Shown: positions 1 through 32,000 of the stretch, piece after piece
Position numbering within the stretch: position 1 is the first letter of the stretch
How the letters are laid out: every line of letters begins with the position of its first letter
Assembly (NCBI GenBank): GCA_015257795.3
Contig: CP072208.2
Location: 570,001 to 602,000, forward strand
Length of the DNA stretch: 32,000 nt
Direction: 5' to 3'
Origin: Candidatus Nanogingivalaceae bacterium
GTDB lineage: Bacteria > Patescibacteriota > Saccharimonadia > Saccharimonadales > Saccharimonadaceae
Position numbers and translations under genes: made by a program
Notes under the pieces: generated by a model
What the model saw: only the letters and a program-made list of their open reading frames with translations
The model's database searches: none
Told to the model about the DNA's origin: nothing

Positions 1-593
1 TGGTCTTTTAATTTTTTTATAGTAAAAATAACATCGTCTGCAGTAATTTTTTGTCCATCAGACCAAGTAGCATTTTTACGCATTTTTATAGTGAAATTGC
101 GATAATTATCACTAGTTTCAACACTTTCCGCCAAATCTCCTTTCAGCGAGCCATCACTATCTATACTATACAATCTAGAAAAAGCAAGCCGCTCGAAAGA
201 TTTTTCTGCATCAGTTGTAGCAAAAATTGGATTTAAAGTTTTAATTTCACTCAAAAACCCTTCCGAATACGTCCCACCCCTAAAAAAAACCTCTTCAGAA
301 AAATTACGATCACTCAACCATCTAAATAAACCAATTGACGAAATCAATAGAGCCATCACACAAATCCAAACAACAATTAGTTTTCGAACGTTTGAGAGGT
401 TTTCGAAGCGTCCAAAGAATAGCTTCTTGGTATGCGAAATAACAGCTTTCTCAGCAATATCAGCCTTCTCTAAAAAAGACAGTTTTTTACTATCTATAGC
501 CTGAATTGAACGAACTTTCGAAACTTTGCCTCTATTTTTTTGAGACATATTAGAAACTCGCTTAACTTTTTTTGGGTTTTTTTTAAAATCCAT
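1..593 (-). CDS. ABC transporter substrate-binding protein, family 5 (OppA/DppA-like), N-terminal part; the ORF runs off the left edge of the window
   Basis: Own translation of the minus strand from the ATG at 593-591. It starts MDFKKNPKKVKRVSNMSQKNRGK, has one hydrophobic anchor (LIVVWICVMALLISSIGLF), then GGTYSEGFLSEIKTLNPIFATTDAEKSFERLAFSRLYSIDSDGSLKGDLAESVETSDNYRNFTIKMRKNATWSDGQKITADDVIFTI. This is typical of the N-terminal lobe of SBP_bac_5 proteins. There is no stop before position 1, which explains its absence from the ORF track. Confidence 0.7.
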   Translation of the reverse strand, partial: MDFKKNPKKVKRVSNMSQKNRGKVSKVRSIQAIDSKKLSFLEKADIAEKAVISHTKKLFFGRFENLSNVRKLIVVWICVMALLISSIGLFRWLSDRNFSEEVFFRGGTYSEGFLSEIKTLNPIFATTDAEKSFERLAFSRLYSIDSDGSLKGDLAESVETSDNYRNFTIKMRKNATWSDGQKITADDVIFTIKKLKD

Positions 594-600
594 AAAACCC

Positions 601-828
601 CTATTTAGGCAAAAGTAAAATTGTAAGAATTGATGCTACAAATATAAATGCAAAAAATATCGTAGCTCTAAAAATACTTTTCTCTACCCCGCGTCGCTCT
701 GTGTACAATTCACCGGAAGCACCAAAGCCAGCACCAAGGGTCGCACCACGCTGTTGAAGTAAAATTAAAAGCATTGTCAAAATACCCGAAATTACGGTCG
801 CAAATTGCAAAATAACATTAATATTCAT
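601..828 (-). CDS. secG: preprotein translocase subunit SecG
   Basis: 75-aa two-TM protein with the SecG-type central motif LLQQRGATLGAGFGASG. Its start shares one base with the stop of the upstream gene (TAATG overlap). Confidence 0.8.
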   Translation of the reverse strand: MNINVILQFATVISGILTMLLILLQQRGATLGAGFGASGELYTERRGVEKSIFRATIFFAFIFVASILTILLLPK

Positions 829-1199
829 TACAAAGTCTCCTTTTCTTTATCAATACCAAAAAATTGGCTTAAACTATAATTCAACAAACTCATCGCCGCA
901 CCAACTATAACAGAATTCCAAAATCCCATAGAAATATTTGGCGCCAAAATCATTGAAATCCACACAATTAAGCCATTTACAATTAATGTAAAGAAGCCAA
1001 AGGTTACAATAATCATTGGCAATGATAAGATTGTAAGAATAGTTTTTAGCGAACTATTAACAACCGAAAAAATCAGACCGGCTAAAAAGAAAGTTCCTGC
1101 ACTATGGTTACTGACATTTCCAAAAATTGAAACTAAAATCCATAGCAAAAAACTATTCAAAAACCACCGATTTATAAATGTTATCAATTGATCTTTCAC
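828..1199 (-). CDS. small 4-TM membrane protein, phage holin family 4 / DUF360-like
   Basis: 123-aa ORF with four hydrophobic segments, matching the size and topology of the YvlD/DUF360 family. It has an apparent GTG start, preceded by TGtTAAAAT and 6 nt, with no SD. Confidence 0.55.
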   Translation of the reverse strand: MKDQLITFINRWFLNSFLLWILVSIFGNVSNHSAGTFFLAGLIFSVVNSSLKTILTILSLPMIIVTFGFFTLIVNGLIVWISMILAPNISMGFWNSVIVGAAMSLLNYSLSQFFGIDKEKETL

Positions 1200-1256
1200 A
1201 TTACCATTTTAACATATTTCAACAATAAAAAAAACACCTTTTGGTGATTTTTAAAT

Positions 1257-1333
1257 TGGTGGGTCTGATGGGGTTCGAACCCATGACACCCTGCTTAAAA
1301 GGCAGGTGCTCTAACCAGCTGAGCTACAGACCC
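1257..1333 (-). tRNA. tRNA-Lys (anticodon TTT)
   Basis: The reverse complement folds as a 77-nt cloverleaf: GGGTCTG/CAGACCC acceptor, GCTC/GAGC D stem, CCTGC-CTTTTAA-GCAGG anticodon arm, ATGGG-TTCGAAC-CCCAT T arm, encoded CCA. Upstream promoter is AAAAAGTCTTGACT-17-TATACT. Confidence 0.92.
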
Positions 1334-1872: not shown

Positions 1873-2973
1873 TCAAAACAATGACTTTTTAGATTTTTTA
1901 AATTCTTTAAGAAGTTCTTTTTGCTTCTTCGAAAGTCGTGTTGGAGTTTCAACAATAATCGTTACAATGTGCGCACCACGTTTATCATTTCGAAGATATG
2001 GAACTCCGTGCCCAGAAAGCTTAAAGTCAGTGTGGCTTTGTGTTCCAGCTGGAACTTTCATAGTTAATGGGCCATCAATAGTTTCAACTTCGATTTCAGC
2101 GCCCAGAGCAGCATCAACCATTGAAATCTTTTCTTCACTTAAAATTAAGCTACCCTCTCGAGTGAATTTTTTATCCGCTTTAACCCTAATATTTACATAT
2201 AGATCACCGTTTTGACCACCTTTAACAGCCTCACCATGACCAGAAAGACGAATTGTTGCGCCATCATCAATTCCTGCTGGAATTTTAAGTTTAATAGTTT
2301 GTTTCTTGCGAGAGATTCCGCTTCCACCACAAACTGAACAATTTTGTTCCGGAACTTCACCGCTGCCACTACATGTCGGGCAAGTTACCGTTTGCTGAAT
2401 TGGTCCAAAAAGAGTTTGAGTTGCTCTAGTTTGTTGGCCGCTTCCATTACAATCTGGACATTTTTTCATTCCATGGCCAGGCTCTGCACCAGAACCTTTA
2501 CAGTGTTCACATTTACTGTCTAAATTTAACGCAATTTCAGTTTCAGTACCAAAAATAGCTTCCTTAAAATTGAGCGTTAATTCTACTTCAACATCTCGGC
2601 CTTTTTTAGCTTGAGACCCTCGATTTTGCGAAAAACCACCGCCAAAAATTCCATCAAAAATATCACCAAATCCACCGCCAAAATCAAAATTAACATTTTG
2701 TCCAGAAAATCCATTAAATCCTTCGAAAGGATTTCCACCAGAGAAACCGCCAGAATTTCCACCAACTCCGGCATGCCCAAATTGGTCGTAACGTTGACGT
2801 TTTTCTTTGTCTTTCAGAACTTCGTAAGCCTCATTCACTTCTTTAAAGGCTTTTTCGTCACCGCCCTTATCTGGGTGAAGTTCAATAGCTTTTTTTCGAA
2901 AAGCTTTTTTAATTTCATCAGCACTGGCGTCTTTTTTAACGCCCAAAATATCATAATAATCAGCTTTGCTCAT
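1873..2973 (-). CDS. dnaJ: molecular chaperone DnaJ (Hsp40)
   Basis: J domain with HPD (DYYDILGV...ELHPDKGGD), a G/F-rich linker, four CxxCxGxG zinc-finger repeats and a C-terminal substrate-binding domain. Ends at a TGA stop. Confidence 0.96.
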
Positions 2974-2992
2974 ATATTTATATTATATCAAA

Positions 2993-3019
2993 TTAGCACT
3001 TAAAGCGCAAGAGTGCTAA
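2993..3019. promoter_or_regulatory. CIRCE operator (HrcA binding site) overlapping the dnaJ promoter
   Basis: TTAGCACTT-N9-GAGTGCTAA. On the minus strand the spacer contains TTGCGC (3010-3005), followed by 17 nt, TATAAT (2987-2982), 8 nt and the dnaJ ATG. Confidence 0.88.
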
Positions 3020-3360
3020 TTTTCTTCAAGTTTCGAAAGTTTAAACTCTAAACCAGAAATTTCAACGCTCAATTTGTAGCTCTGCTCACTTAAACGTTCA
3101 ATTTCATAATCTGCTCTATCTAAAAAATTCCCATAAGAATGAACATCACCCATTTCTTCCGGATCAGCCTCTCGAGTAAGTTTTAAAGCTTCTTGAATCT
3201 GTGCCTGAATTTTCTCATCTTGCTGTTCAAGTTTGGAAATTTTATTTTTAATTTGCTCAATTTCTTTTTGTCTTTCCGAACTTGGATCAATTTCCGAAAG
3301 CTCTTCCCAGCTATTTTGCGAATTAGTTTGATATTTTTTATTTTTATTAAAATCTTCCAT
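3016..3360 (-). CDS. hypothetical acidic coiled-coil protein
   Basis: 114-aa ORF rich in E/K/Q heptad-like sequence, lying between dnaK and dnaJ. It has its own putative promoter, TTGCGA-17-TAAGAT (3395-3367), 6 nt upstream of the ATG. Confidence 0.6.
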   Translation of the reverse strand: MEDFNKNKKYQTNSQNSWEELSEIDPSSERQKEIEQIKNKISKLEQQDEKIQAQIQEALKLTREADPEEMGDVHSYGNFLDRADYEIERLSEQSYKLSVEISGLEFKLSKLEEN

Positions 3361-3401
3361 GAAAATATCTTATCAGATTTCGAAGCAAATCGCAACAAAC
3401 T

Positions 3402-3431
3402 AAAAGACGCCCGATTATTCGAACGTCTTTT
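3402..3431 (-). terminator. intrinsic terminator downstream of dnaK
   Basis: Minus-strand hairpin AAAAGACG ... CGTCTTTT followed by T residues, directly after the dnaK stop. Confidence 0.65.
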
Positions 3432-3447
3432 AAGGAAAGAATCTTAG

Positions 3448-5328
3448 TTATTTTTTATCGATTACTTCGCCCTCAACAGGTTCATTGTCTTTCTTATCTG
3501 ATTCTTTGACATCTGAAGCTTCTGCGCTTTGTGCTTGATACAATTTAGCACCAATTGGCATAATTGCATCTTGAAGATCTTTCGAAGCTTTTTCAAGCTC
3601 ATCTTTATCTTCAGAATTTTGATGTTTTTTAGCTTCTTCAACCGCTTTCGAAATTGCTTCTTCATCTTCTTTCGAAATTTTATCTTTAAATTCGCTTGGC
3701 ATTTTTTCAGCTTGATAAATAGCATTTTCAAGTTGGTTTTTTGCATCAATTATTTCGCGCTTTTTCTTGTCTTCGTCTGCGTGAAGTTCTGCTTCTTTTT
3801 GAGCTTTTTCAATATCTTCTTTACTCATATTTCCTGAGTTTTGAATTGTAATATTATTCTCTTTACCAGTTCCTTTATCTTTAGCAGTAACTGTTAGGAT
3901 TCCGTTCGCATCGATATTGAAAGTAACTTCAATTTGTGGAACTCCGCGTGGAGCTGGAGCAATTCCTGAAAGCACAAACATTCCGAGTGATTTGTTGTCA
4001 GCGGCCATTTCACGTTCACCTTGAAGTACATGAATTTCAACTTGCGGCTGATTGTCAGCGTAAGTTGAGAAAACTTGCGATTTCGAAGTTGGCACAGTTG
4101 TGTTTCGATCAATCATTGGAGTTCGAACGCCACCAGCAGTTTCGATTCCAAGAGTCAAAGGTGTAACGTCAAGAAGGAGCACATCTTTAACATCTCCAGC
4201 CAAAACACCACCTTGAATTGCAGCACCAACAGCCACAACTTCATCAGGGTTTACACCTTGAGTTGGTTTTTTACCAAAGATTTTTTCAACTTTTTCAACT
4301 ACGGCTGGCATTCGGGTCATACCACCAACCATCACAACTTCAGCAATATCACTAGCTTTTAGATCTGCATCTTTTAGAGCTTTTTCAACAGGATCAGCTA
4401 GTCGCTCAATCAAATCAGCAACTAATTCTTCGAGTTTTGCTCGAGTTAGAGTGTATTCAAAGTGTTTTGGACCATCTTCATCAGCTGTCAAGAATGGCAA
4501 GTTCACTTCATAAGATATTGTCGAAGAAAGCTCTTTCTTAGCTTTTTCAGCTTCATCCTTCAAGCGTTGCATTGCAGCAGAATCATTTTTAAGATCGATT
4601 CCTTCTTCTTTTTTAAATTCTTCTAAGAAATGGTTCACAATTCGGTTGTCGAAGTCTTCACCACCGAGGTGTGTATCACCGTTTGTTGAAAGAACTTCAA
4701 ACACGCCATCAGCAATATCAAGCACTGAAACATCGAATGTTCCACCACCAAGGTCGAAAACAGCAATTTTTTCGTCTTTTTTACCATCCAAGCCATAAGC
4801 AAGTGCGGCTGCAGTTGGTTCGTTAATGATTCGTTTTACCTCAAGACCTGCAATTTTACCAGCATCTTTTGTTGCTTGACGTTGGCTGTCATCAAAGTAA
4901 GCTGGAACGGTAATCACAGCTTCGGTAACTTTTTCGCCCAAGAAAGCTTCGGCGTCAGCTTTAATTTTCGAAAGAATCATCGCTGAAACTTCTTCTGGTG
5001 TATATTCTTTGTCACCCATTTTCACGGCAACACCATTACCTTTTTTAACAATTTCGTAAGGCATAATTCCGAGATCTTTTTGAACTTCCTCGTCAGAATA
5101 TTTTCGTCCAATCAAACGCTTTACGCCATAAATTGTATTTTTTGGATTTGTTACGCGTTGACGTTGAGCAACTTGGCCAACCAAACGATCACCTTTTTTA
5201 TTAATCGCTACAACTGATGGAGTAGTTCGATTTCCTTCCGCATTTGTAATCACTTCTGGTTTTCCGGCAACCATGTAAGCAAAAGCACTGTTGGTTGTAC
5301 CAAGGTCAATTCCAATAATTTTTCCCAT
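3448..5328 (-). CDS. dnaK: molecular chaperone DnaK (Hsp70)
   Basis: Canonical Hsp70 motifs are present ([26 protein letters not shown]). The start is placed at [10 protein letters not shown] (ATG 5328), which has an AAGGA SD, rather than the upstream ATG at 5358 used by the ORF track. Confidence 0.97.
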
Positions 5329-5434
5329 TCTATCCTTCTTTCTTTTATTAATTATCACTGCAATTTCTTGCGTTTATTATCTTATTTTTGGCGCGCCTCG
5401 TAGTTCTCTCGCGCCATATTTAAATTATACGCTT

Positions 5435-5461
5435 TTAGCACTCACAAGTCAAGAGTGCTAA
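5435..5461. promoter_or_regulatory. CIRCE operator overlapping the dnaK promoter
   Basis: Perfect TTAGCACTC-N9-GAGTGCTAA. On the minus strand the spacer carries TTGACT (5452-5447), followed by 17 nt and TATAAT (5429-5424). Confidence 0.92.
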
Positions 5462-5533
5462 TGATGTATTATTTACAATATTTATTATTAATACCCTTTA
5501 TGCTATAGTTAATATTAAATATTTTTATTTATG

Positions 5534-5570
5534 CAACAATAGCGCTCTTAGTTTGCGAGCGCTATTGTTG
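5534..5570. promoter_or_regulatory. CIRCE-like extended inverted repeat (14 nt arms, 9 nt spacer)
   Basis: CAACAATAGCGCTC-ttagtttgc-GAGCGCTATTGTTG. The inner 9-mers ATAGCGCTC / GAGCGCTAT match the CIRCE half-sites TTAGCACTC / GAGTGCTAA at 7 of 9 positions, with the same N9 spacing. Confidence 0.5.
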
Positions 5571-5602
5571 TATTATTTAGATATTTATTAGATACCGTAT
5601 AT

Positions 5603-5631
5603 TTGACATAATTAAAGTAATATATTATAAT
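5603..5631 (+). promoter_or_regulatory. sigma-70-type promoter for the Zn-ribbon mini-gene
   Basis: TTGACA (5603-5608), a 17-nt spacer, TATAAT (5626-5631). Confidence 0.6.
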
Positions 5632-5779
5632 TATAAAATCTAGGTAAGTCCTTTAACTTTCTAGAAGTTTAGAAGTAGAGGTATTAGTATCTACTTCATG
5701 CAGTTTTCTTTTTGCAAATTGAATTCAATTTTAGAAACAAATGAATTTAATTTTCGAAACAATATCAAGGAGGAAAGCC

Positions 5780-5944
5780 ATGGATAATAAATTCCCTTGT
5801 CCAAAATGCGGATCTTACGATATAGAAATTTCATATGCTACACTTTCAGGTCTAGATATGCCTACAGCAGTCTACGGTTTTACTAAGTATGATTATGTCT
5901 GTCATAAGTGTGGAGGTTCTGGATATCATTGGATCGCCCCTTAA
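5780..5944 (+). CDS. small zinc-ribbon protein (54 aa)
   Basis: Sequence is MDNKFPCPKCGSYD...VCHKCGGSG, with two CxxC pairs. A strong AGGAGG SD lies 6 nt upstream of the ATG at 5780, so this start is preferred over the track start at 5741. Confidence 0.7.
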   Translation: MDNKFPCPKCGSYDIEISYATLSGLDMPTAVYGFTKYDYVCHKCGGSGYHWIAP

Positions 5945-5976
5945 ATCCCATCATAGAGTGATGGGATTTTTCCTTT
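5943..5976 (+). terminator. intrinsic terminator
   Basis: 11-bp stem AAATCCCATCA / TGATGGGATTT with a 5-nt loop, followed by a T run. Confidence 0.75.
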
Positions 5977-5994
5977 TTAGATATAAATGTATTA

Positions 5995-8358
5995 CTAATA
6001 AAATTTCAAATATCCCCAATTCTCTATCTCTGGCGCGTCTACTGAATTTTCTCGCGCAAAGCGTAAAGCATCATCTTGGCGTTTTCGATATTCTTTTACA
6101 AGACTCTCAAAAACTTCATCACCTTTACTAACCGAATTTAAGGCTCTCGCTGCAATATCATATCGCGATACTTTATTTCTCGCAAGCATATCAAACGGTG
6201 TAGTTGTTGAGCCTTTTTCTTCATACCCATTAATTTGAATACGCGCTGGATTTTGATAATCAAATAAAATTGATTTGAGAGTTTTAGCGTATCCGTGAAA
6301 AGCAAATATAACTGGCTTATCTTTAGTAAAAATCTTCACAAAGTCGCTTTTCGAAAGCGTATTTTCGAAAGTTCCAATTCCTTTTCCACAAAGCGCCTGA
6401 ATATAAACCAAGCGAATCTTAACTTGCGCAACATCATGAAGCAAAACTTGAAGTGCCGCAACTGTTTCTTTAAAGACATAATCACCACTTGCCGCCAAAA
6501 TTAAATCCGGTTCATCATCTTCCAAAATTGAATCCCAATCTGTAATCTTCTGATTTTTCCAACTATCAAAAATAAATATTCCGCCATTTTCAAGCTGTTT
6601 TTGCGCGCTTTCTAGAGAAAAATATCTTGGCTCTGGCGTTTTTCCCGCAACTAAAACATTGATATTATTTCGAGATTTTAGCATTTTCGAAATCGACACA
6701 ACCGCAGAGTTGTCATCCGCCGGCAAAAAAATCTGTCCAATTCCATTTTCGCGCCGCAAAACTTCATCAATAAAGCTTGGATTTTGGTGCGAAAAACCAT
6801 TGTGATCTTGACGCCAACCAGTTGAAGTTAGAATATAATTCAAACTTGCTAAATCACCTCGCCATTTTACCTCTTTCGATTGTGCCAAAAACTTCGCATA
6901 TTGATCCATCATTGAAGAAATAATTGGCGCAAAAGCTTCATACGAAGTTAAAATCCCGTGTCGACCAGTTAAAATATATCCTTGCAAAAGCCCTTGTAAG
7001 CAGTTTTCACTTAGAATTTCCGTCACCCGACCATTTTTTGCCAAATCCTTTTCCCAAGGTTTAATTTCTCGTTGCCAAGAACGTGAAGTTGCTTCAAAAA
7101 TCGCATCTAGTTTATTTGAATAGGTTTCATCTGGGCTAAAAAACCTAAAATTATCAGGGTTTTTTTCGAAAACTTTCTCCAACAAACCACCAACGGCATT
7201 CATTGCAAGAGATTTTTCGCCTAGCCCTTCAGTAGTTTCCGGCAATTTTAGCTCTTTAAAATTCAAATTCGCATCAATAAAACGATTTCGGCCAATTCTG
7301 CTTGAACTTTCTGGCAAAAAGTCATTAAGCCATTCCTTAAATTCACCTCGCTTATAATCAAAAAGCTCATCAAACTTATATGATTTCATCCAATTTTCAA
7401 GTTTTTCAAGCTCATTTTTATCTGTTTTTGCCTTTAAAAGAGGCACTTGGTGTGCAAGTGAATTTCCTTCAATTTTTTGACCATTATTTTCCTTTACACC
7501 CGAGCTACCTTTTTTGCTTCGCATAATAATCATTGGTAAACGGATAAATTTATTGTTTCGCCCAAATTTTATTCGCGAAATATCTCGAAACGCATTCGAA
7601 AATACATTCGAAAGTTCCAAATCAAAATCTTCTGCGGAATATTCATCGACAATTTTAGGCTCCCAACCAGCTCCATGAAAAAATTGAATTAACTCAAAAT
7701 CACTCATTGAACCAAAGATCGTTGGACCCGAAATTTTATAACCATTTAAATGTAAAATCGGCAAAACAACCCCGTTTTCAACCGGATCAATCAATTTATT
7801 CAAGTGCCAAGAGGCTGCAATCGTTCCGGTTTCAGCTTCACCGTCACCAATTAAAGTTGTAATTACTAGGTTTGGATTATCTAAAACAGCACCAAAAGCG
7901 GTAGACAATGAATAACCGAGCTCACCGCCCTCAAGAATTACACCAGGCGTAAATGGGCTGGCGTGCGATGGAAAACCGCCCGGCCAAGAAAAGTTTTTCG
8001 AAATATACTGAATTCCGCTACGATTTCGAGCAGCATTAATATCAAATTTCGAAAGAGTTTCTTCAAGAAAAAGATTCGCTTGAAGTGCCGGAAAAGCATG
8101 GCCAGGACCAAGCATAAACGCTGTTTTTAGATCACTTTTAGCAAAATCTAGCTGTTTTTGCATATTTAAAAGATGTGCATAAACATGATTAACACCCGGA
8201 CAACTTCCCCAATGACCAAGAAGCCGAGGTTTAATGTCTTCAGAAGTTAAGGGGCGCTCCAACAGAAAATTGTCTTGCAAAAAAATTTGCGAAACCGTTA
8301 AATAATTTGCCGCACGAATAAACTTTTTAATATTTTCAAGATTTTGCCCACTATTCAT
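5995..8358 (-). CDS. xfp: xylulose-5-phosphate/fructose-6-phosphate phosphoketolase (TPP-dependent)
   Basis: 787 aa, the typical XFP length, with family motifs (GHWGSCPG, EGGELGYS, GDGEAETG). No SD; TGaTAAAAT (8374-8366) lies 7 nt upstream of the ATG. Confidence 0.95.
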   Translation of the reverse strand: MNSGQNLENIKKFIRAANYLTVSQIFLQDNFLLERPLTSEDIKPRLLGHWGSCPGVNHVYAHLLNMQKQLDFAKSDLKTAFMLGPGHAFPALQANLFLEETLSKFDINAARNRSGIQYISKNFSWPGGFPSHASPFTPGVILEGGELGYSLSTAFGAVLDNPNLVITTLIGDGEAETGTIAASWHLNKLIDPVENGVVLPILHLNGYKISGPTIFGSMSDFELIQFFHGAGWEPKIVDEYSAEDFDLELSNVFSNAFRDISRIKFGRNNKFIRLPMIIMRSKKGSSGVKENNGQKIEGNSLAHQVPLLKAKTDKNELEKLENWMKSYKFDELFDYKRGEFKEWLNDFLPESSSRIGRNRFIDANLNFKELKLPETTEGLGEKSLAMNAVGGLLEKVFEKNPDNFRFFSPDETYSNKLDAIFEATSRSWQREIKPWEKDLAKNGRVTEILSENCLQGLLQGYILTGRHGILTSYEAFAPIISSMMDQYAKFLAQSKEVKWRGDLASLNYILTSTGWRQDHNGFSHQNPSFIDEVLRRENGIGQIFLPADDNSAVVSISKMLKSRNNINVLVAGKTPEPRYFSLESAQKQLENGGIFIFDSWKNQKITDWDSILEDDEPDLILAASGDYVFKETVAALQVLLHDVAQVKIRLVYIQALCGKGIGTFENTLSKSDFVKIFTKDKPVIFAFHGYAKTLKSILFDYQNPARIQINGYEEKGSTTTPFDMLARNKVSRYDIAARALNSVSKGDEVFESLVKEYRKRQDDALRFARENSVDAPEIENWGYLKFY

Positions 8359-8402
8359 ATGTTATATTTTATCATATTTATGCTTAATTTTAAAGTTTCA
8401 AA

Positions 8403-8559
8403 ATTAAAAACCGCCTAATATTAGACGGTTCGGTTATAAGAGGATAGGCTTCCTCAAGACAAAAAGAAAAGTACGGACTCTAGCTTTTTAAAAAATCATT
8501 TTGGTAGGAGGCTAATCCGCGAGTCCCAACCTTCTAGAATAAGGCGAAACGGATCAACG
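8403..8559 (-). ncRNA. candidate small RNA or regulatory leader (no family recognised)
   Basis: Bounded by a near-consensus promoter (8594-8566) and an intrinsic terminator (hairpin 8409-8430 plus T run on the minus strand). It holds no ORF of useful length. It contains internal hairpins (GAGGA-agccta-TCCTC; GGGACTC...GAGTCC) and a CCUCCU tract. Confidence 0.35.
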
Positions 8560-8565
8560 CTTATA

Positions 8566-8594
8566 ATAATATCACATTCCTTATATTTTGTCAA
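8566..8594 (-). promoter_or_regulatory. sigma-70-type promoter (minus strand) just downstream of the grpE stop
   Basis: Minus strand reads TTGACA (8594-8589), a 17-nt spacer, TATTAT (8571-8566). Confidence 0.5.
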
Positions 8595-8602
8595 CGATAA
8601 TT

Positions 8603-9130: not shown

Positions 9131-9140
9131 ACTTTCCTCC

Positions 9141-9764: not shown

Positions 9765-9778
9765 TATCTCTCCTTAAA

Positions 9779-17972: not shown

Positions 17973-18012
17973 TATTTAATTTTATCATATTTTTTGTTAT
18001 AATTAAATAGTC

Positions 18013-18088: not shown

Positions 18089-18175
18089 AATTCGCCTAAT
18101 TGGCGTTTTTTTATTTTTGCTTAAAATTCAACAAAAAACCGCCCCATCTGGATGGAAGCGGTTTTCATAAATCAA

Positions 18176-18382: not shown

Positions 18383-18451
18383 TTCTATCCTTTCATTACT
18401 ACTGTTGTATATTTTCATTGTATACTAGTTATTAAGTAGTGTCAAGAGTTT

Positions 18452-19135: not shown

Positions 19136-19171
19136 AATTCTTATGTCTATTTTATCAAAAACTTTCAAAAA

Positions 19172-22849: not shown

Positions 22850-22855
22850 ATAACG

Positions 22856-24864: not shown

Positions 24865-26190
24865 CTAAAGATTAAACAAGTCATTTAAACTTTCCGCAAC
24901 AGTTGGGTGTGTAAAGATTTGATCTCGCAAAACTGTATAATCCAGATTGGCATCGATTGCGGTTTTTATAATATTTATCACTTCTGGTGAATTGTAGCAG
25001 AACAAAGCTGCGCCTAAAATTTTATTCGTCTGTACATCAACTACAGATCGCAAAAGTCCTGTTGTCTTAAACTCGAGCTGAAGCTTTGGAACCGCTGCGG
25101 CTGGAATTTCTTTCACTTTAATTTCGAAACCTTCTGCTAGGGCTTGCTTTTCAGTTAACCCAACTTTCGAAAATGGAACCTGCAAGAAAACTGAATTTGG
25201 CAAGTTTTTGCGGCTATTTAAAGAATATTCGCCATTACCATAAAATTGCGAGCGTAAAATTCGAAAATCATCCAAAGAAGCATAAGTGAATTGTTCTTTT
25301 CCGCGCACATCACCAACCGCCCAAACTTTTGGATTTGAAGTTTGAAGTTTTTCGTCCGTCCAAATTCCACCATTTTCAAGCGTTTTAATTCCCGCTTTTT
25401 CAAGATTCAATTTCGAGATTGCAGGTTTTCTTCCAATCGAAACCAACACTTTGTCAAACGCAAAATTTTCGCCATTATTTTTTACTAGAATTCCATTTTC
25501 AGTATTTTCGAAAGCTTCAATATTTGCATTAAATTCAAAATTAACACCTTGCGAAACTAGAAAATCATAAATCGCTTTTCGCATCGAGTCATCTTCATCG
25601 GCTAAGATTTTATCAAACTTCTCAAAAATTGTAACTTTTGTGCCTAATTTTGTGAAGGTTGAAGCAAATTCCAAACCAATAAATCCACCACCAATAATTG
25701 CTAGATTATCAATTTTTTCTTGGTTATCAAGAAGTTCTGTGCTTGTAAAGATTTTTGAATTTTGCAAACCTTCTTCAATTCCTTCAATTTTAGGAATAAA
25801 ACTTTCCGCACCGGTATTAATGATAATTTTATCGGCCGAAAGCTCAAGTTTTTCACCATTCGATTCAACTAAAACCGTGTTCTCATCTAGAAATGAGCCA
25901 AAGCCATCAAAAACCGTAACCAAATCGTTATCAGCCAACATGTGATAGTTTTTTAAGTTTAACCGCTTAACAACATCGCCTTTACGCGAAATCGCTTCTT
26001 CGAAAGTTAAATTCTCGCTTGCCGCAACCGCTAAAGTCTTCGTTGGAATACAAGCAATATTAATGCAAGTTCCACCATACATTTTTGAAGATTTTTCAAC
26101 CAGAGCAATCTTTTCACCTTTATTTGCTGCTAAAACAGCTAGCGTTTTTCCAGCCTTTCCAAAACCAATTATAACTTTATCAAATTTCAT
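24865..26190 (-). CDS. rclA: class I pyridine nucleotide-disulfide oxidoreductase, RclA/YkgC-like
   Basis: 441 aa. The N-terminus VIIGFGKAGKTLA, an intact redox motif GGTCINIACIPTK, and the C-terminal FTHPTVAESLNDLF closely resemble E. coli RclA as I remember it. The family assignment rests on memory, not on a search. Confidence 0.65.
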   Translation of the reverse strand: MKFDKVIIGFGKAGKTLAVLAANKGEKIALVEKSSKMYGGTCINIACIPTKTLAVAASENLTFEEAISRKGDVVKRLNLKNYHMLADNDLVTVFDGFGSFLDENTVLVESNGEKLELSADKIIINTGAESFIPKIEGIEEGLQNSKIFTSTELLDNQEKIDNLAIIGGGFIGLEFASTFTKLGTKVTIFEKFDKILADEDDSMRKAIYDFLVSQGVNFEFNANIEAFENTENGILVKNNGENFAFDKVLVSIGRKPAISKLNLEKAGIKTLENGGIWTDEKLQTSNPKVWAVGDVRGKEQFTYASLDDFRILRSQFYGNGEYSLNSRKNLPNSVFLQVPFSKVGLTEKQALAEGFEIKVKEIPAAAVPKLQLEFKTTGLLRSVVDVQTNKILGAALFCYNSPEVINIIKTAIDANLDYTVLRDQIFTHPTVAESLNDLFNL

Positions 26191-26247
26191 CTTACCTCTT
26201 TTCTCTTTCTATTTTATCATATTCAACTTAGAAAAATCTTAAATTAA

Positions 26248-26276
26248 AAAGAAAAACCCCCCGATTCTTCGGGAGA
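26248..26276 (-). terminator. intrinsic terminator downstream of the phosphatase-GT fusion gene
   Basis: Minus-strand hairpin CTCCCGA-agaa-TCGGGGG (one G.U pair) followed by TTTTTC TTTTT. Confidence 0.6.
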
Positions 26277-26317
26277 TTTTCTTGGCTCCCCTTGATAGGA
26301 ATATTACTAACCAACAA

Positions 26318-27916
26318 CTACTCGGGTACTGTATCAGACAGCCGAAAATCTTCAATTTTAATAGATGAATCTTTTGAAAACATAGATAAATTAGAGTCAT
26401 CTTCATAAGCAGATAGGTATTTTTTATATTCTTTAGAGTCTTGCCAATACACCCCACTTTTCGCCATGTTTTTATATAACGATAATGAATTCGGCAAGAA
26501 TTTATAATGAAATACTACCGATGATATATTTACAAAATTTAACTCTTTCGGAAATACATAATGATCGTTCACAATTAATTCATTTCCAGTGTAATATAGT
26601 AGTGGAACCTTTTGTAGGCTAGACCTTAAACCAAAAATCCTTCCTCTAGGGCCACCGTAAATTCTTAACCCGTAAAAAGGGTTTATTTCAGTTTTATAAG
26701 TGTTCGAATCTACAAATTTCATATCACTTATATTCTTATTTTCGAAAATGGGCTTTTTAGAATATACGTCTACCATAATAGCTTTAACAGATTTACGACC
26801 ATCCTTACTTATAGAGTCAATGTATTCTTCTATCTTTTCATCAACATGGAATAATTCATCGGAATCAACATTCAAATACCATCTATTAATTCCATAAATA
26901 TCTAAAATCTGTTGTCTCCAGCTACAAGCCCTAAAACAATTATAGGTAGCTTCAACATTGTATAAATCCAGTTTAATATCTTTAATATTTTTCGTAATTT
27001 CATTTATCTTTTTTATTGAGTCATCACCAGAATTATTATTTACCAATACGAAATTCTTAACGCCCAATTCGACGTAATGTCTTATCCATTTCTCAAAAAA
27101 TTCTGAAAAATTATTAAATATACAAACTAAAATAATCTCTTTTTTATTTTTATCAATAGGTTTTAAGGTATTTTCAACCTTACTGAGTTTATCATTCAAC
27201 CCTAAAATTAAATACTTAAGTGTTTCATTATTAAATTCTATATTGTTATAGTCTTTAGCGATATTTACATATTTATGTCTGGTTTCGCTATTCTTAATTT
27301 TGTCTGTTTCTTTAAGTCTTTTGCTAACTTCAAAATTCGATATATCACTCAATAAATTATTGTGTTTTTCTAAAAATTGAAAATCAACATCTTTAAAAAC
27401 TTCGAATTTACCTTTTTTCGCATGAGAAGATTTTAACCCTAAGATCCACTTCATAAAGGATATAATCGTTCCATGAGAAACTATTAATACAGTGTTGTTT
27501 TTGAAATTATTCTTTTGGATATCAGTTAAAAAATCGCATAATCTACTTTCAATGCTATATTTACTATCACCATACTGACCAAATCTAATAAAAAAATCCC
27601 CAGCAACTTGCTTTTCTCTAACCTCATCTAATTCGGTAGAGTTTTCTTTTCCGTTAAATTTACCCCAATTTATCTCTCTAATACGGTTATCTATTTCAAC
27701 ATTAAGATTTTGATTATCCGCAACTTCTTTCGCTGTTTGCAGGGTTCTAATTAATGGCGAAGCGTATATCTTATCTATTTTAGGCAATAATTTTACCGAT
27801 TCGATAACTTTCTTTCTACCATTTTCAGTCAATATTGAACATTGTATTTCTTGGCTCGATAAAATTTCACGCGTATTATCCATCGCCTCACCATGTCTCA
27901 TAAATATTAAGTTCAT
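26318..27916 (-). CDS. fusion protein: N-terminal histidine phosphatase (PGM-like) plus C-terminal GT-A fold glycosyltransferase (Glyco_tranf_2_4 / GT92-like)
   Basis: The N-terminus has LIFMRHGEA (RHG), SPLIRTLQTA and VSHGTII. The C-terminal half has ILVCIFNNFSEFFEKWIRHYVELGVKNFVLVNNNSGDDS and a DxD motif (LNVDSDELF). Confidence 0.7.
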   Translation of the reverse strand: MNLIFMRHGEAMDNTREILSSQEIQCSILTENGRKKVIESVKLLPKIDKIYASPLIRTLQTAKEVADNQNLNVEIDNRIREINWGKFNGKENSTELDEVREKQVAGDFFIRFGQYGDSKYSIESRLCDFLTDIQKNNFKNNTVLIVSHGTIISFMKWILGLKSSHAKKGKFEVFKDVDFQFLEKHNNLLSDISNFEVSKRLKETDKIKNSETRHKYVNIAKDYNNIEFNNETLKYLILGLNDKLSKVENTLKPIDKNKKEIILVCIFNNFSEFFEKWIRHYVELGVKNFVLVNNNSGDDSIKKINEITKNIKDIKLDLYNVEATYNCFRACSWRQQILDIYGINRWYLNVDSDELFHVDEKIEEYIDSISKDGRKSVKAIMVDVYSKKPIFENKNISDMKFVDSNTYKTEINPFYGLRIYGGPRGRIFGLRSSLQKVPLLYYTGNELIVNDHYVFPKELNFVNISSVVFHYKFLPNSLSLYKNMAKSGVYWQDSKEYKKYLSAYEDDSNLSMFSKDSSIKIEDFRLSDTVPE

Positions 27917-28087
27917 AATATACCCTCTCTAGTTCTTTAGTTTTTTATCAGACTAGTTATATTTTCTTTATTTATAATATATTAATTAAAAATTTTTTAC
28001 AATATAAAATTAAATAAAAGAAAAAAGGCTCTATTTTAATCTGTTAGAACCTTTTTTACATTATCAAATTATAATAAAAATCAAATT

Positions 28088-28162
28088 TGGCTCCGGCAGC
28101 TGGGCTCGAACCAGCGACCTATTGGTTAACAGCCAACCGCTCTACCACTGAGCTATGCCGGA
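28088..28162 (-). tRNA. tRNA-Asn (anticodon GTT)
   Basis: 75-nt cloverleaf on the minus strand: TCCGGCA/TGCCGGA acceptor, GTTGG-CTGTTAA-CCAAT anticodon arm, GCTGG-TTCGAGC-CCAGC T arm, encoded CCA. The promoter is AAAAAGTCTTGAT-17-TATAAT upstream. Confidence 0.92.
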
Positions 28163-28267
28163 ATAATAGTTATATTATACATGAATATTTTCGAAATATC
28201 AAGACTTTTTTATAATTTTCTAAAAAATAAAATTGACCCGCATTTCTACAGGCCAATTTTCAATATT

Positions 28268-29569
28268 TTATTCAGTTCGAAGAGCTTCGATTGGATTCAT
28301 TTTTGCAGCTTTTCGCGCTGGAAGATATCCCGAAAGAATTGAAATTATCATCAAAACAAGCACCAATAAAATCCAGGCCAACCAATTCGGCTGAAGAAGA
28401 TTTGTATCCACCCCAGCTGTATTTTGTAGTTTTAAGGCATTTTTAATTACTGGGTTTAAGAAAGTTATCCCATAAGCAACAACAATTCCAATAATTCCAC
28501 CAATCAAGCCAATTAATGCTGCCTCGTATCTGAAAAGTTTCGAAACATCACTTTTACGCATTCCAAGTGATTTCATTAAGCCAATTTGCGAAGTTCGCTC
28601 CAAGACTGAAATATATTGAGTATTTATAATTCCAAAAACTGCTGCCAAAAGAGTTAAAAACCCAAATCCAGCAAGTCCAGCCGATATTGCATTAATTCCT
28701 GCTTGAACAATAGCTTTATCATCCGCAAAAGTTGAAACATCATAGTAGCTTCCGCCATTTAAAGCTAAAATATCTTTTTTAATTTCATCAACCGTCCGGC
28801 TTCCATCTGTTGTTACGCTCAAACTATAAAATTGAGGATCCCCTTCATTCTGTTTGGTAGCAATCGCCAAACCATCACTATTTTCTATCCAGAAATTACC
28901 TTTATAGCTAAAAGTTGTCTCTGTTTTTCCAGCATCAACTGCTTGGATTTCGAAAGTTTTTTCAAAAATTTCTCCTTTCGAATCTTTAAATTCCAAGATA
29001 ACTTTTTTACCTATAATATCCTCGGGTTTTTTGCCGCCAAGAACTTCAACATAAGCTTTTGGTGCAACAATTTTACCAGCATCAATTCGGTTATTTTTAT
29101 CAAGCTTTCCAGCCGAAAGCTCCATTTCTTGCTCGTCATTTTTAGTTGCAACACCAACATCATATTTTTCGCCATTTTCTATTCGAACTGTTTCGGCGCT
29201 TACTGGTATTGCTGGTGAAGCCTTTCGAACACCTTTTACTTTCGAAATTTTATTTAGATCTTCTTTGCTGATTATTCGCGATTTTATGCTTTCTTCTGTT
29301 TGAGTTTTTTCAAAATCCTCGCGTGTTGTCGAAATCTTATTCGGTGCATATGGGTCTCGAGCTTTAACAGCACGAATTACTGTTAAGGCTCTTTGGTCAC
29401 CGATTTTATTAGCTAAACTTTCAACATATGCATTTCCACCTTTCGCTGCAGCTATTGCGACCGCCACTGTTGTTGCCCCAACTGCAATCGCAAGGCTTGT
29501 TAAAATTGTTCGTTTCTTTGCTAGACGAAGACTCTTTCCGGCTCGTCTAATAATATCAATCCTACGCAT
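28268..29569 (-). CDS. ABC transporter permease, FtsX/MacB-like
   Basis: An N-terminal TM helix, a large extracytoplasmic domain and a C-terminal FtsX-type 3-TM bundle, ending in ...LPARKAAKMNPIEALR. It overlaps the ATPase gene by 8 nt. Confidence 0.85.
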   Translation of the reverse strand: MRRIDIIRRAGKSLRLAKKRTILTSLAIAVGATTVAVAIAAAKGGNAYVESLANKIGDQRALTVIRAVKARDPYAPNKISTTREDFEKTQTEESIKSRIISKEDLNKISKVKGVRKASPAIPVSAETVRIENGEKYDVGVATKNDEQEMELSAGKLDKNNRIDAGKIVAPKAYVEVLGGKKPEDIIGKKVILEFKDSKGEIFEKTFEIQAVDAGKTETTFSYKGNFWIENSDGLAIATKQNEGDPQFYSLSVTTDGSRTVDEIKKDILALNGGSYYDVSTFADDKAIVQAGINAISAGLAGFGFLTLLAAVFGIINTQYISVLERTSQIGLMKSLGMRKSDVSKLFRYEAALIGLIGGIIGIVVAYGITFLNPVIKNALKLQNTAGVDTNLLQPNWLAWILLVLVLMIISILSGYLPARKAAKMNPIEALRTE

Positions 29570-30248
29570 TTCTTACTCCTTCAATCTGTTCAACTTTTCC
29601 GTCTTTAATTCGAATTCGAATATCACATTTTTCCGCCAATTCTTCATCATGTGTAACAATTAATAGCGTTGCTTTAGAATTCTTATTATATTCGAAAAGC
29701 ATTTTTTCAATCTTAGCGCTTGTGATCGAATCAAGATTTCCAGTCGGTTCATCCGCAAAAATTATTTCTGGCGAATTCGCAATCGCCCGCGCAATCGCCA
29801 AACGCTGTTTTTGCCCACCCGAAAGATCACGAGCTGGTGTTTTAATTTTATCCTCCAAGCCAACTGCTTTTAGGGCATTTTCAATAATCTCTTTTCGCCG
29901 AAAAATTGGCTCTTCGGCAATTTCAAGCGGCAAACTTACATTTTCGAAACAAGTTTCATTGCCTTGCACGAAAAAACTTTGAAAAATAAATCCCATTTTT
30001 TTCGAACGAAATTTATCAATATCTTTCTGCTTCATTGAAAGAATATTCACGCCATCCATTAAAACTTCACCTTCTTCTGGCGCGTCCAAACCGCTCATCG
30101 CGTGAATCAATGTTGATTTTCCGCTTCCCGATTTTCCAATAATCGCCACGCTTGCGCCTTTTGGAATTTTAAAACTTACATTTTTTAAAGCTTGAAAACT
30201 ATTTTTCTTTTTACCGTAAGTTTTTGAAATATTTCGAACTTCAATCAT
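29562..30248 (-). CDS. ABC transporter ATP-binding protein (MacB/LolD-like)
   Basis: Contains Walker A (GKSGSGKST), the Q-loop, the signature LSGGQKQR, Walker B (IIFADEPTGNLD) and the H-loop. Confidence 0.92.
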   Translation of the reverse strand: MIEVRNISKTYGKKKNSFQALKNVSFKIPKGASVAIIGKSGSGKSTLIHAMSGLDAPEEGEVLMDGVNILSMKQKDIDKFRSKKMGFIFQSFFVQGNETCFENVSLPLEIAEEPIFRRKEIIENALKAVGLEDKIKTPARDLSGGQKQRLAIARAIANSPEIIFADEPTGNLDSITSAKIEKMLFEYNKNSKATLLIVTHDEELAEKCDIRIRIKDGKVEQIEGVRNA

Positions 30249-30262
30249 ATCGCTCCTTTTAA

Positions 30263-31849
30263 TTAAAATTGATCCTCATCTGGGTTTTCAAGATACAAAC
30301 ACTGACCTTTTGTGTTTTCATTGAAATCATAACCATTTACTTTAACTTTTTCAGCACGCATTTTTAATCGCGTATTTTTCGAAACCACAGAATTACACTT
30401 ATTTGTTTTAACGTCCGCATTTTCAACCTTGTTCAATTCCAAATTTCCACCATTACTATTTACGCTTAAGTTCTTTGCGTCAATTCCGTTCGCATAAAAA
30501 TTGCTAAATTCGCCCGCGTAAACTTCTAAATTATCAATTTTTGCTGAATTTTCGAAATTAACAGACCCGTTTTTCGAAATGTCCACCTTAATTTTCTCGG
30601 CATTTTTTGCAAAATATTTTACTTGCGAGCTCGATTTCAAATTAATTTCACTTAACTCTGGGCCATAAATATGAACTTCTTCCTGATTTCCGCCATAAAA
30701 ATAACGCGCATTATTTGAAACTTTATTCAAATTTAGTTTTAAAGTTTCGCCATCAAAATTCATTTCAAGATTATCTTTTTCGAAATTAAAATGTGTGAAT
30801 TCAATTTTTGGCTCATCCGCAATATGATAGAAAACCGCCACCGAAGAATCAACTTCTAGCTTTTTAATACTTTTCATTTTTGCAGAATCAATTTTAACTC
30901 GTTCTGAAATTAAACTTTGAGAAACCCTATTATTTACTTTATCGCGCAGCAATGATGCTGAAGTAATAAATCCCATGAGTCCTACAAATGCAATCACAAC
31001 TGAAATAATCGAAACAAAGATGTCAATTTTTGTAATTTTTAGTTTGAAAAGCATTTTTGCGACAAATCCCGTGAGCAAAAGATAAGCAAAACCTAAAATA
31101 TTAGCACTAATAATTACACCTATACCGGCATCTTTAGCATTTGCAAAAGCCGCCGCGCTATAAATTTCTGAAAGCGCTAAATTTCCAAGAATTATTGCTG
31201 TAACTCCGCCCAAAAAGGCCAAAACTGCAAAAATACCAAAAATTATACCAAAAGCTTTAGCAATCTTTAAGTTTCGAAGGTGAATTTTTTCGAAATTATA
31301 TTCTTCATTTACTTCCCGAATAGAATTTGCGGTAATATTTTCGCCACGAAGTCGCAAAATGTCATTCGCATTTTTTGCTGCAGGAATAACCAAAATCGAC
31401 AAAATATAGATCGGAACTATTCCACCAAAAGTCATAAAAAACATTACAATTAACACCAAGCGAACCCAAACTACATCAATGTTTAAGTATTGGGCTAAAC
31501 CGGATGCCACGCCAGAAATCATTCCATTTTTCTCATCACGATAGAGCCTTTTTGAAATTTTCGCCGAAGATTTCTCTTCATTTTTTTCGGTAAAATCTGT
31601 ATCTTGAAAAACTTCTGGTGAACCAATTTGAGCTTCAATTTTCGAAATCTCTTTCTCGGTAATAACTCCACCTTCTTTCACTCCAAGTTCCGCCAAAATC
31701 TCAGTAATCCGAATTTCTACATCTTCAAAAATATCTTTATCGCTTGAATAAATCTTCAAATCTTTTAGGTATTTTTCTAGTTGCTTTTTTGCTGGAATTT
31801 CAATTTCATAAGGAATTTTAGCCAAATGAATTCTTGTAATTTCTTTCAT
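30263..31849 (-). CDS. PspC-domain membrane protein with an N-terminal PadR-associated helical (HAAS/DUF1700-like) region and a C-terminal repetitive beta-rich domain
   Basis: The PspC motif RLYRDEKNGMISGVASGLAQYLNIDVVWVRLVLIV is followed by several TM helices. The C-terminal region has repeated N/K-rich strands, resembling DUF4097/LiaF-like domains. Confidence 0.7.
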   Translation of the reverse strand: MKEITRIHLAKIPYEIEIPAKKQLEKYLKDLKIYSSDKDIFEDVEIRITEILAELGVKEGGVITEKEISKIEAQIGSPEVFQDTDFTEKNEEKSSAKISKRLYRDEKNGMISGVASGLAQYLNIDVVWVRLVLIVMFFMTFGGIVPIYILSILVIPAAKNANDILRLRGENITANSIREVNEEYNFEKIHLRNLKIAKAFGIIFGIFAVLAFLGGVTAIILGNLALSEIYSAAAFANAKDAGIGVIISANILGFAYLLLTGFVAKMLFKLKITKIDIFVSIISVVIAFVGLMGFITSASLLRDKVNNRVSQSLISERVKIDSAKMKSIKKLEVDSSVAVFYHIADEPKIEFTHFNFEKDNLEMNFDGETLKLNLNKVSNNARYFYGGNQEEVHIYGPELSEINLKSSSQVKYFAKNAEKIKVDISKNGSVNFENSAKIDNLEVYAGEFSNFYANGIDAKNLSVNSNGGNLELNKVENADVKTNKCNSVVSKNTRLKMRAEKVKVNGYDFNENTKGQCLYLENPDEDQF

Positions 31850-31858
31850 ATTTCTCCT

Positions 31859-32000
31859 TTAAAGATTATTTATTGTTTTGGTTAGCTTTTCAATTTCTTC
31901 ACTAATATTTGCTAAAACTTTTGTACCAAAATCGGTTATTGAATAATACTTTCTTGGCGGCCCTTGCTCACTTTCTTGCCATTCGTGGCTTAATAATCCA
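31859..32000 (-). CDS. PadR family transcriptional regulator, C-terminal part (the ORF enters from the right edge)
   Basis: Own translation gives ...GLLSHEWQESEQGPPRKYYSITDFGTKVLANISEEIEKLTKTINNL*, which contains the PadR wing signature (W...G..RKYY.IT..G). Confidence 0.7.
   Translation of the reverse strand, partial: GLLSHEWQESEQGPPRKYYSITDFGTKVLANISEEIEKLTKTINNL

Follow-up and report, generated by a model that had tools for sequence, protein, structure and literature searches.

The DNA analyzed here, in the following called the window, is a stretch of 32,000 nt from Candidatus Nanogingivalaceae bacterium, an ultra-small bacterium of the human mouth that belongs to clade G6 of the oral Saccharibacteria (TM7); it represents positions 570,001-602,000 of contig CP072208.2 (GCA_015257795.3), read on the forward strand. 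Its base composition is 34.7% G+C, and it harbors, among other genes, dnaJ (1873-2973), dnaK (3448-5358) and uvrC (19172-20731), all transcribed from the minus strand, as well as genes for tRNA-Lys (1257-1333, minus strand) and tRNA-Met (18013-18088). The subject of this study is the palindrome TTCGAA, which recurs along this entire region: an exact count yielded 93 copies, one per 344 bp, and 44 copies of the 8-mer palindrome TTTCGAAA. A preliminary description of the sequence had put these figures, by eye, at roughly 90 copies of the hexamer, about one per 350 bp, with about half of them embedded in the 8-mer; it had further assumed about 35% G+C and an expectation of about 10 hexamers and about one 8-mer from base composition. 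Each of these estimates agrees with the exact values, the computed expectations being 10.6 and 1.1, respectively.

We compared the observed counts with Markov models of order 0 up to the maximal order, both for TTCGAA and for TTTCGAAA. The hexamer is expected 23.6, 36.1 and 51.2 times under models of order 1, 2 and 3, and 77.2 times under the maximal-order model; its excess is thus about 9-10-fold over base composition and fourfold over the dinucleotide model, in which its z-score is the largest among all 4096 hexamers. The maximal-order model nearly absorbs the excess because the sub-words TTCGA, TCGAA and TTTCGA carry the same signal. For the 8-mer, the expectation increases through 4.4, 6.7, 10.6, 23.4 and 38.0 (orders 1 to 5) to 41.9 (order 6). 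The Markov comparison that the preliminary description had proposed therefore leaves the hexamer in excess at orders 0-3, and chance or base composition could be rejected as its cause by the models of orders 0-4. The window as a whole over-represents CpG 1.25-fold, and it is asymmetric between its strands, with 6459 C and 4641 G on the plus strand (GC skew -0.16) and 24 of the 26 genes located on the minus strand.

Seventy-nine copies of TTCGAA reside within genes. When synonymous codons were shuffled within each gene (500 runs), 30.6±4.6 copies were retained on average and never more than 46; a stricter shuffle, in which the protein sequence and all codon-junction dinucleotides were kept, gave 41.2±4.4 copies (maximum 53). 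Amino-acid, codon and junction-dinucleotide usage are hence rejected by both shuffles. The preliminary description had also held that all three reading frames are used, and had considered that the excess might vanish in codon-shuffled genes or be confined to a single frame. It does neither: frame TTC-GAA accounts for 22 copies (7.5 in the codon shuffle and 7.9 in the strict shuffle), frame xTT-CGA-Axx for 18 copies (8.2 and 12.1) and frame xxT-TCG-AAx for 39 copies (14.9 and 21.2).

The choice among synonymous codons follows the same pattern. Serine is written as TCG in 51% of the cases when this produces T-TCG-AA (11-20% in other contexts), phenylalanine as TTC in 55% before GAA (9-18% elsewhere), glutamate as GAA in 96% after TTC (69-77% elsewhere), and arginine as CGA in 78% within TT-CGA-A (15-46% elsewhere). 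Codon preference shifts only where the full hexamer results, and the high usage of TCG and CGA is concentrated in these contexts. The dnaK gene, with six copies of the hexamer against 2.0 in the codon shuffle, illustrates this: five of the six consist of a codon ending in T followed by TCG AAA (x-Ser-Lys), while the sole Ser-Lys dipeptide whose preceding codon, ATG, ends in another base is spelled AGT AAA, exactly as the preliminary description had reported. The four copies in dnaJ (0.8 in the codon shuffle) use all three frames, with PFEGF read as TTC-GAA, AFRKK and YLRND as xTT-CGA-Axx, and RLSKK as xxT-TCG-AAx; the two of these that had been singled out before, AFRKK and PFEGF, were given correctly. 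In uvrC, nine copies compare with 3.6 in the shuffle. Across the window CGA is the top arginine codon, which is unusual at 35% G+C and largely tied to the motif context.

The motif is also enriched outside of genes. Non-coding DNA, leaving aside tRNA genes, contains 12 copies against 3.3 expected. Two of these (3379 and 3418) lie in the spacer downstream of dnaK (3361-3447) that precedes the gene at 3016-3360, and further truly intergenic copies are present at 22893 and 28190; the preliminary description had located the first three of these correctly and had placed the fourth at 28188. Two additional copies, at 1274 in the tRNA-Lys gene and at 18066 in the tRNA-Met gene (tRNA calls by ARAGORN), correspond to the universal T-arm sequence and are outside the phenomenon.

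It is the complete palindrome that is enriched. The single-mutation neighbors and the half-sites of TTCGAA occur at 0.5-1.1 times expectation in the window, half-sites such as TTCGAT and TTCGAG show no enrichment, and both [ACG]TCGAA (24 copies) and TTCGA[TCG] (31 copies) are rare; the preliminary description, which had called NTCGAA with N other than T much rarer, was right in this respect but had put the number at 15-20. A general bias toward the TTCG/CGAA half-sites was rejected on these grounds. TTTGAA and TTCAAA, present at 0.74 times expectation, are no more depleted than the other neighbors. Beyond the hexamer, T is found at position -1 with a frequency of 0.65-0.67 against a baseline of 0.43-0.47, and position -2 is at baseline, so that a longer repeat or mobile element as the origin of the motif could likewise be rejected. 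The excess of the 8-mer TTTCGAAA mostly reflects the hexamer together with a moderate preference for T/A flanks. Collectively, the excess of TTCGAA is a DNA-level, palindrome-specific property that amino-acid, codon and dinucleotide usage are insufficient to explain.

The 93 copies start at positions 383, 402, 517, 1274, 1928, 1989, 2722, 2895, 3032, 3379, 3418, 3581, 3647, 3671, 4082, 4122, 4967, 5753, 6350, 6364, 6686, 7165, 7595, 7607, 7997, 8048, 8946, 9090, 9893, 9900, 10049, 10418, 11778, 11863, 11875, 12137, 12720, 13870, 14591, 15372, 15439, 15678, 15700, 15961, 16640, 17078, 17911, 18066, 19218, 19353, 19734, 19836, 19944, 20201, 20293, 20571, 20658, 21658, 21689, 22438, 22893, 24265, 24379, 24585, 25123, 25166, 25260, 25507, 25999, 26703, 26741, 27401, 28190, 28276, 28539, 28949, 28977, 29182, 29224, 29241, 29609, 29615, 29691, 29943, 30001, 30233, 30378, 30551, 30573, 30779, 31273, 31289 and 31641. 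Their spacing is near random (coefficient of variation 0.97 versus 0.99±0.10 for random placement), and selection for even spacing is accordingly unsupported in the window.

To place this observation in a wider frame, we retrieved 69 related loci with uvrC as the anchor, plus eight contigs of the same species, which together cover about 20-30 kb per genome. The genomes nearest to the UvrC probe are metagenome-assembled genomes from the human mouth labelled Candidatus Nanogingivalaceae or Saccharibacteria, that is, TM7 clade G6, the clade with the smallest genomes and the lowest G+C content among the Saccharibacteria (PMC8386444). In the pooled G6 lineages (418 kb) we counted 1332 copies of TTCGAA against 327 expected from dinucleotides, a 4.07-fold excess. 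Densities vary within the clade: lineage L024, with 42% G+C, carries 4.5 copies per kb, and the lineage comprising L010, L023 and L025 carries half the motif density (1.2-1.4 per kb; 2.15-fold). The sister clade (L027, L066) has TTCGAA at 0.27 times expectation and other Saccharibacteria at 0.55 times, like several other palindromes there. The excess is thus confined to clade G6 and arose within the clade or at its base; its recurrence in many independent assemblies, from both short and long reads, shows that it is no assembly artefact. Spacing of the sites also differs among lineages: it is indistinguishable from random in the window and its closest relatives (coefficient of variation 0.97-1.00), slightly more even in the genomes of group B (0.78-0.91 versus 0.98±0.11 for random placement), and clustered in L024 (1.20, with 27 gaps shorter than 25 bp versus 10 expected).

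The sites are conserved beyond what their sequence context would predict. Among genomes with about 80% nucleotide identity to the window, 44-63% of its TTCGAA sites are kept, as compared to 29-36% of frame-matched hexamers and 21-26% of other NNCGNN sequences; in L024, at about 72% identity, 42% are kept versus 19% of the controls. In the L010 lineage, which is as distant as L024, the sites of the window are kept at the control level, and in the sister clade none of 19 is kept. Among members of the species, 0.85% of the motif bases differ versus 2.4% of all bases.

For a view of the underlying changes, we built a tree from 13 genomes (14,880 gap-free columns) and inferred substitutions by parsimony. 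Turnover of the motif proceeds mostly by interconversion of TTCGAA with TTCAAA or TTTGAA, which accounts for 35 of 45 gains and 47 of 85 losses. Within the TT__AA context, CG is lost at a rate of 0.043 per branch-site versus 0.058 elsewhere, and CA or TG changes to CG at 0.042 versus 0.022-0.028 elsewhere. When synonymous changes were compared with controls consisting of the identical codon change next to the identical neighboring base outside of the motif, motif-creating changes at the central CG were 3.7-fold more frequent than expected (34 versus 9.2). Motif-destroying changes reached 0.52 times the level of the matched controls overall; they were reduced at the central CG (44 versus 75.9 expected) and at the outer bases as well (7 versus 22.7 expected). 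Since the outer bases are also spared, a repair bias acting on the central CpG alone is insufficient. Control hexamers with adequate counts gave ratios of about 0.5-1.5, the outliers being TTCGAA and its one-base shifts, and TTCAAA behaved as the mirror image of TTCGAA. The whole hexamer is held at about three copies per kb, in all frames and between genes, by a weak per-site fixation bias, and this bias very probably is sequence-specific and acts at the level of the DNA. From the gain/loss ratio and the codon-context odds, we estimate the scaled advantage per site at roughly 2, which is in the range usual for selection on codon bias or for biased gene conversion.

The excess pervades the core genome and is absent from some accessory genes of low G+C content, though two strain-variable insertions carry the motif. 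Of the recodable positions, those at which a synonymous change of codons could yield the hexamer, about 40-47% are occupied by it in ordinary genes versus 13% in the low-GC genes, which together hold five copies in 4.6 kb (4.6 in the shuffle) and thus show no excess; all other genes contain 74 copies in 21 kb. The low-GC set comprises two accessory genes with 30% G+C (12388-13637, minus strand; one copy in 1.25 kb), a His-phosphatase/glycosyltransferase gene with 29% G+C (26318-27916, minus strand; three copies at 17 recodable positions) that occupies a strain-variable insertion site, and the genes at 828-1199, 1379-1843 and 21923-22849. Those at 12388-13637 and 26318-27916 are patchy among the relatives, and their identities are at odds with the species tree; these patchy low-GC genes are exchanged accessory cassettes. 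Individual accessory genes reach 91-95% identity in pairs of species whose identity is otherwise about 80%, and between the window (9779-31849) and L003, L005, L011 and L028 gene-by-gene identity forms a mosaic. L003, for instance, is 94-97% identical across the segment from uvrC to PspC (the gene at 26318-27916 being absent there) and 76-86% identical across the segment from yebC to hyp238. Such mosaics attest to frequent homologous exchange between G6 species.

The strain-variable insertions fall at two sites. At the first (5359-5994), some strains have a gene for the type IV restriction enzyme GmrSD between the phosphoketolase gene and dnaK (L115:3892-6240; L116:4547-6299). At the second (about 26190-28268), near an FtsX gene, strain L110 carries an element (L110:13721-20100) encoding a serine recombinase, a Phage_CRI-like protein, a C5 methyltransferase and an HpaII-like nuclease, of which only a remnant is present in L112 (13721-18249). 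No relatives of the replication protein of this element turned up among viral contigs. When viral contigs were scanned for clusters of the motif, 39 loci emerged, nearly all of them local repeats. Two unrelated contigs classed as "viral," L095 (IMGVR_UViG_3300044959_000237) and L106 (IMGVR_UViG_3300020567_000331), contain 6-8 copies of TTCGAA per kb; CpG is over-represented there 1.7-1.9-fold, TTCAAA stands at 0.15-0.37 times expectation, TTCCGA/TTCGGA are enriched as well, and open reading frames overlap on both strands. Their motif density appears to have a cause different from that in G6, namely a broader CpG-rich bias.

Several further features of the window deserve mention. The heat-shock cluster hrcA-grpE-dnaK-dnaJ (1873-10522) encloses genes for a phosphoketolase and a flavodoxin-like FMN reductase (5995-8358), and its HrcA protein is short (247 amino acids). 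The protein of 632 amino acids encoded at 22901-24799 may be a fusion: a class I fructose-bisphosphate aldolase makes up its C-terminal half, and its first 300 or so amino acids have no Pfam match. Three tRNA-Met (CAT) genes are crowded into 900 bp (17210-18088), on alternating strands, around a gene for a small FtsB/DivIC-like membrane protein (17532-17972).

Which protein might read the motif? The motif is a perfect 6-bp palindrome, and its half-sites show no enrichment; specificity of this kind would come only from a protein that recognizes the sequence, probably as a dimer. The DNA methyltransferases present in the loci searched are a FokI-like double enzyme in L008 and the restriction-modification pair of the HpaII type in the L110 element, with GmrSD (L115, L116) as a further restriction gene. 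The former, a minus-strand open reading frame of 624 codons whose product, a double adenine methyltransferase, bears an RYIGTK motif in its N-terminal part and two motifs of the DPPY type, occurs in one genome of group B only and probably belongs to a strain-specific restriction-modification system for an asymmetric site. Three conserved proteins of unknown function encoded at 16150-19168 were considered as readers and rejected, since they resemble membrane or septation proteins and are neither pilin-like nor DNA-binding. About 5.0-6.5 kb beyond the left end of the window, the same-species contigs L113-L116 contain an intact ComEC-like gene of 481 codons (e.g., L116:16587-18032) that is 98-99.8% identical among the four contigs; its product matches the Pfam family Competence and, weakly, DUF4131, and lacks the beta-lactamase-type nuclease domain. 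Saccharibacteria are naturally competent (PMC10633639), and G6 genomes carry type IV pilus-like genes (PMC8386444).

We propose that TTCGAA, with its weaker preference for flanking T/A (TTTCGAAA), may be a lineage-specific highly iterated palindrome of the G6 Saccharibacteria. Its recognizer would be a dimeric, sequence-specific protein of the restriction-modification kind, and the likeliest candidate would be a methyltransferase that lost or outlived its restriction partner. TTCGAA, possibly in methylated form, would then mark DNA of the own clade; fragments bearing it would be imported, spared or recombined with greater efficiency in the course of natural transformation, so that motif-creating alleles would spread and motif-destroying ones be removed. 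The explanation we favor, albeit tentatively and with slightly less than even confidence, is that the hexamer tags self-DNA: a protein specific for TTCGAA, probably one that methylates it, would read the tag and so give motif-bearing DNA an advantage in transformation or recombination. We prefer it because the phylum is competent, type IV pilus-like genes and a nearby ComEC-like gene are present, recombination occurs between species, and cyanobacteria offer precedents for both transformation and methyltransferases in the highly iterated palindrome HIP1; the lack of excess in some low-GC accessory genes would also fit this link. A more elaborate version strikes us as rather doubtful: clade G6 might have evolved a HIP-type system independently, in which an orphan TTCGAA methyltransferase marks its own DNA at about three sites per kb, and the competence and recombination machinery sorts same-clade DNA, which is recombined, from that of hosts and bystanders, which is degraded for nucleotides. 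Saccharibacteria are thought to rely on scavenged nucleotides.

Several observations weigh against a self-DNA tag. No TTCGAA-specific methyltransferase, nuclease or receptor was found in the window, the 69 related loci or the eight same-species contigs (about 20-30 kb per genome). Six to eight bases provide only weak discrimination, the densities to be told apart being about 3 per kb in G6 and 0.1-0.5 per kb in other Saccharibacteria, and the known uptake sequences are longer and non-palindromic. Neither intergenic DNA nor terminators show a higher density of the motif (2.2 per kb in non-coding versus 3.1 per kb in coding DNA). Furthermore, the two motif-rich strain-variable insertions, the serine-recombinase element of L110 (2.27 per kb) and GmrSD of L115 (4.2 per kb), are explained equally well by a process acting on any resident DNA. 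Finally, the parsimony rates derive from an alignment of about 15 kb with a modest number of events.

The preliminary description had listed four options for the excess without choosing among them: the motif might signal DNA uptake, be a target of methylation, bind a protein or serve an architectural role, or arise from a context-specific bias of mutation or repair. Their shared premise, a DNA-level process directed at the full palindrome, holds, and the part that fares badly is a bias of pure mutation or of repair limited to CpG. One form of the latter would be a neutral by-product of very-short-patch-type repair, in which an m5C methyltransferase acting at TTCGAA and a Vsr-like nuclease correct T:G to C:G and thereby turn TTTGAA and TTCAAA into TTCGAA, the motif itself being functionless. 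The predominance of exactly these interconversions in motif turnover, the elevated CA/TG to CG and reduced reverse rates in the TT__AA context, and the level of TTTGAA/TTCAAA (0.74-fold) all fit. Yet the outer bases, invisible to such repair, are protected; the xTT-CGA-Axx frame is enriched although its transition precursors are a stop codon or a glutamine codon; the flanks show an additional T/A preference; and TTTGAA/TTCAAA are not below the other neighbors, with a deficit (about 25) that falls short of the excess of TTCGAA (about 69). We therefore regard this route as unlikely. As for an artefact, whether it stems from the usage of amino acids, codons, codon pairs or dinucleotides or from chance, the maximal-order Markov model (77 versus 93 observed) and the unusually common codons TCG and CGA could be cited in its support; in view of the shuffles, the enrichment in all frames and in non-coding DNA, the restriction of the codon switch to motif contexts and the concentration of TCG/CGA usage there, and the many independent short-read and long-read assemblies, its probability is negligible, and the tests that the preliminary description had named refute it.

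Equally unlikely as the repair by-product, in our estimation, is a need for dense sites in a methylation-directed process, such as strand discrimination in mismatch repair (the Dam/MutH principle, as in Elhai's model for HIP) or the timing of replication or segregation, with selection keeping a site near every position. One site per about 340 bp does match the highest densities of HIP1 (PMC5861425), the whole motif is conserved, and the spacing in group B, slightly more even than random, would be in keeping with it; the random-like spacing in the window and its closest relatives and the clustering in L024 speak against it, as do the accessory genes that manage without the motif and the fact that neither a TTCGAA methyltransferase nor a MutH-like gene was seen in the window and the loci. 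Somewhat more improbable still is that TTCGAA is bound by an abundant protein of the nucleoid-associated or architectural type, which as a dimer would recognize T-tract/CG/A-tract and help to compact or organize the very small chromosome. Palindromic symmetry, T/A flanks that yield a T3-CG-A3 element with a flexible CpG step, and the uniform distribution along the DNA would suit such a protein, and a nucleoid role has been proposed for HIP1 by Xu et al. (PMC5861425); on the other hand, no candidate protein is known, nucleoid proteins rarely demand an exact 6-bp match, and the absence of the motif from some accessory DNA has no obvious ill effect.

If the more elaborate version, an independently evolved HIP-type system in G6, is correct, no highly iterated palindrome would have been described outside of the cyanobacteria before TTCGAA, and the motif would support the emerging view of these palindromes as methylation-dependent self-recognition tags for gene exchange. 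The HIP1 puzzle is about thirty years old; a second case, with another sequence, in another phylum and in a genome of about 0.6-0.7 Mb, allows a comparison in which the gene set that tracks both motifs is likely to be the machinery. Within G6, the half-density L010 group, the high-density lineages and the avoiding sister clade constitute a natural experiment that could reveal the responsible gene. The density of TTCGAA also offers an easy criterion by which G6 DNA can be binned in oral metagenomes. Should the motif be methylated, this would predict the form of DNA needed to transform these uncultured organisms, and the fact that it is a BstBI site opens the way to a cheap methylation assay.

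How does TTCGAA relate to systems already described? With the DNA uptake sequences (DUS) of Neisseria and the uptake signal sequences (USS) of the Pasteurellaceae it shares over-representation of a short motif across core genes in all frames, its presence in lineages that exchange DNA and its scarcity in some recently acquired genes, a naturally competent host phylum with ComEC-like and type IV pilus genes, and a weak per-site drive of the kind that fits the molecular-drive model. DUS and USS, however, span 9-12 bp or more, are non-palindromic and hundreds-fold over-represented at about one per kb, frequently occur in pairs at terminators, and are recognized by a pilin or receptor, whereas TTCGAA is a palindrome of 6-8 bp with three copies per kb and no intergenic preference; the classical definition of an uptake sequence by length and asymmetry does not apply to it. 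The hexamer is identical to the BstBI/AsuII-type restriction site of REBASE (TT^CGAA), which makes restriction-modification the nearest enzymology. A genome with a restriction system usually avoids the target of that system, and other Saccharibacteria (0.55-fold) and the sister clade (0.27-fold) do avoid TTCGAA, but G6 enriches it fourfold, and no restriction or modification gene for the site was found in the window and the loci. Very-short-patch repair by Dcm/Vsr, reportedly a cause of skewed oligonucleotide frequencies in Escherichia coli, illustrates how a methylation site can become more frequent through a sequence-specific repair enzyme, and CpG transitions biased toward the motif dominate turnover here as well; the bias in G6, in contrast, extends to bases untouched by such repair and to the frame with non-synonymous transition precursors.

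The closest parallel is HIP1 (GCGATCGC), which had been regarded as restricted to the cyanobacteria (PMC5861425); we found no report of an excess of TTCGAA or TTTCGAAA in Saccharibacteria in the searchable literature. Both motifs are perfect short palindromes that reach up to about one copy per 350 bp (PMC4390886, PMC5861425), occur in all reading frames and between genes, steer synonymous codon choice, and are kept between genomes more often than control motifs or the same codons in other places. Both are lineage-specific, with some lineages having lost or replaced the motif, and their candidate roles coincide, namely methylation-linked repair, nucleoid structure and, latterly, transformation and uptake. 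The abundance of HIP motifs tracks their cognate methyltransferases (PMC4390886), and methylated HIP1 raises the efficiency of transformation in Synechococcus (bioRxiv 10.1101/2024.09.10.611283). The differences are that HIP1 is a GC-rich 8-mer found at 15-300 times expectation and has known cognate methyltransferases, whereas TTCGAA is an AT-rich 6-mer with soft flanks found at 4-10 times expectation in Patescibacteria/Saccharibacteria with genomes of about 0.6-0.7 Mb, with no such enzyme seen in the window and the loci. TTCGAA in clade G6 is therefore best described as an analogue of HIP1, an AT-rich counterpart in an unrelated phylum, and not as HIP1 itself.

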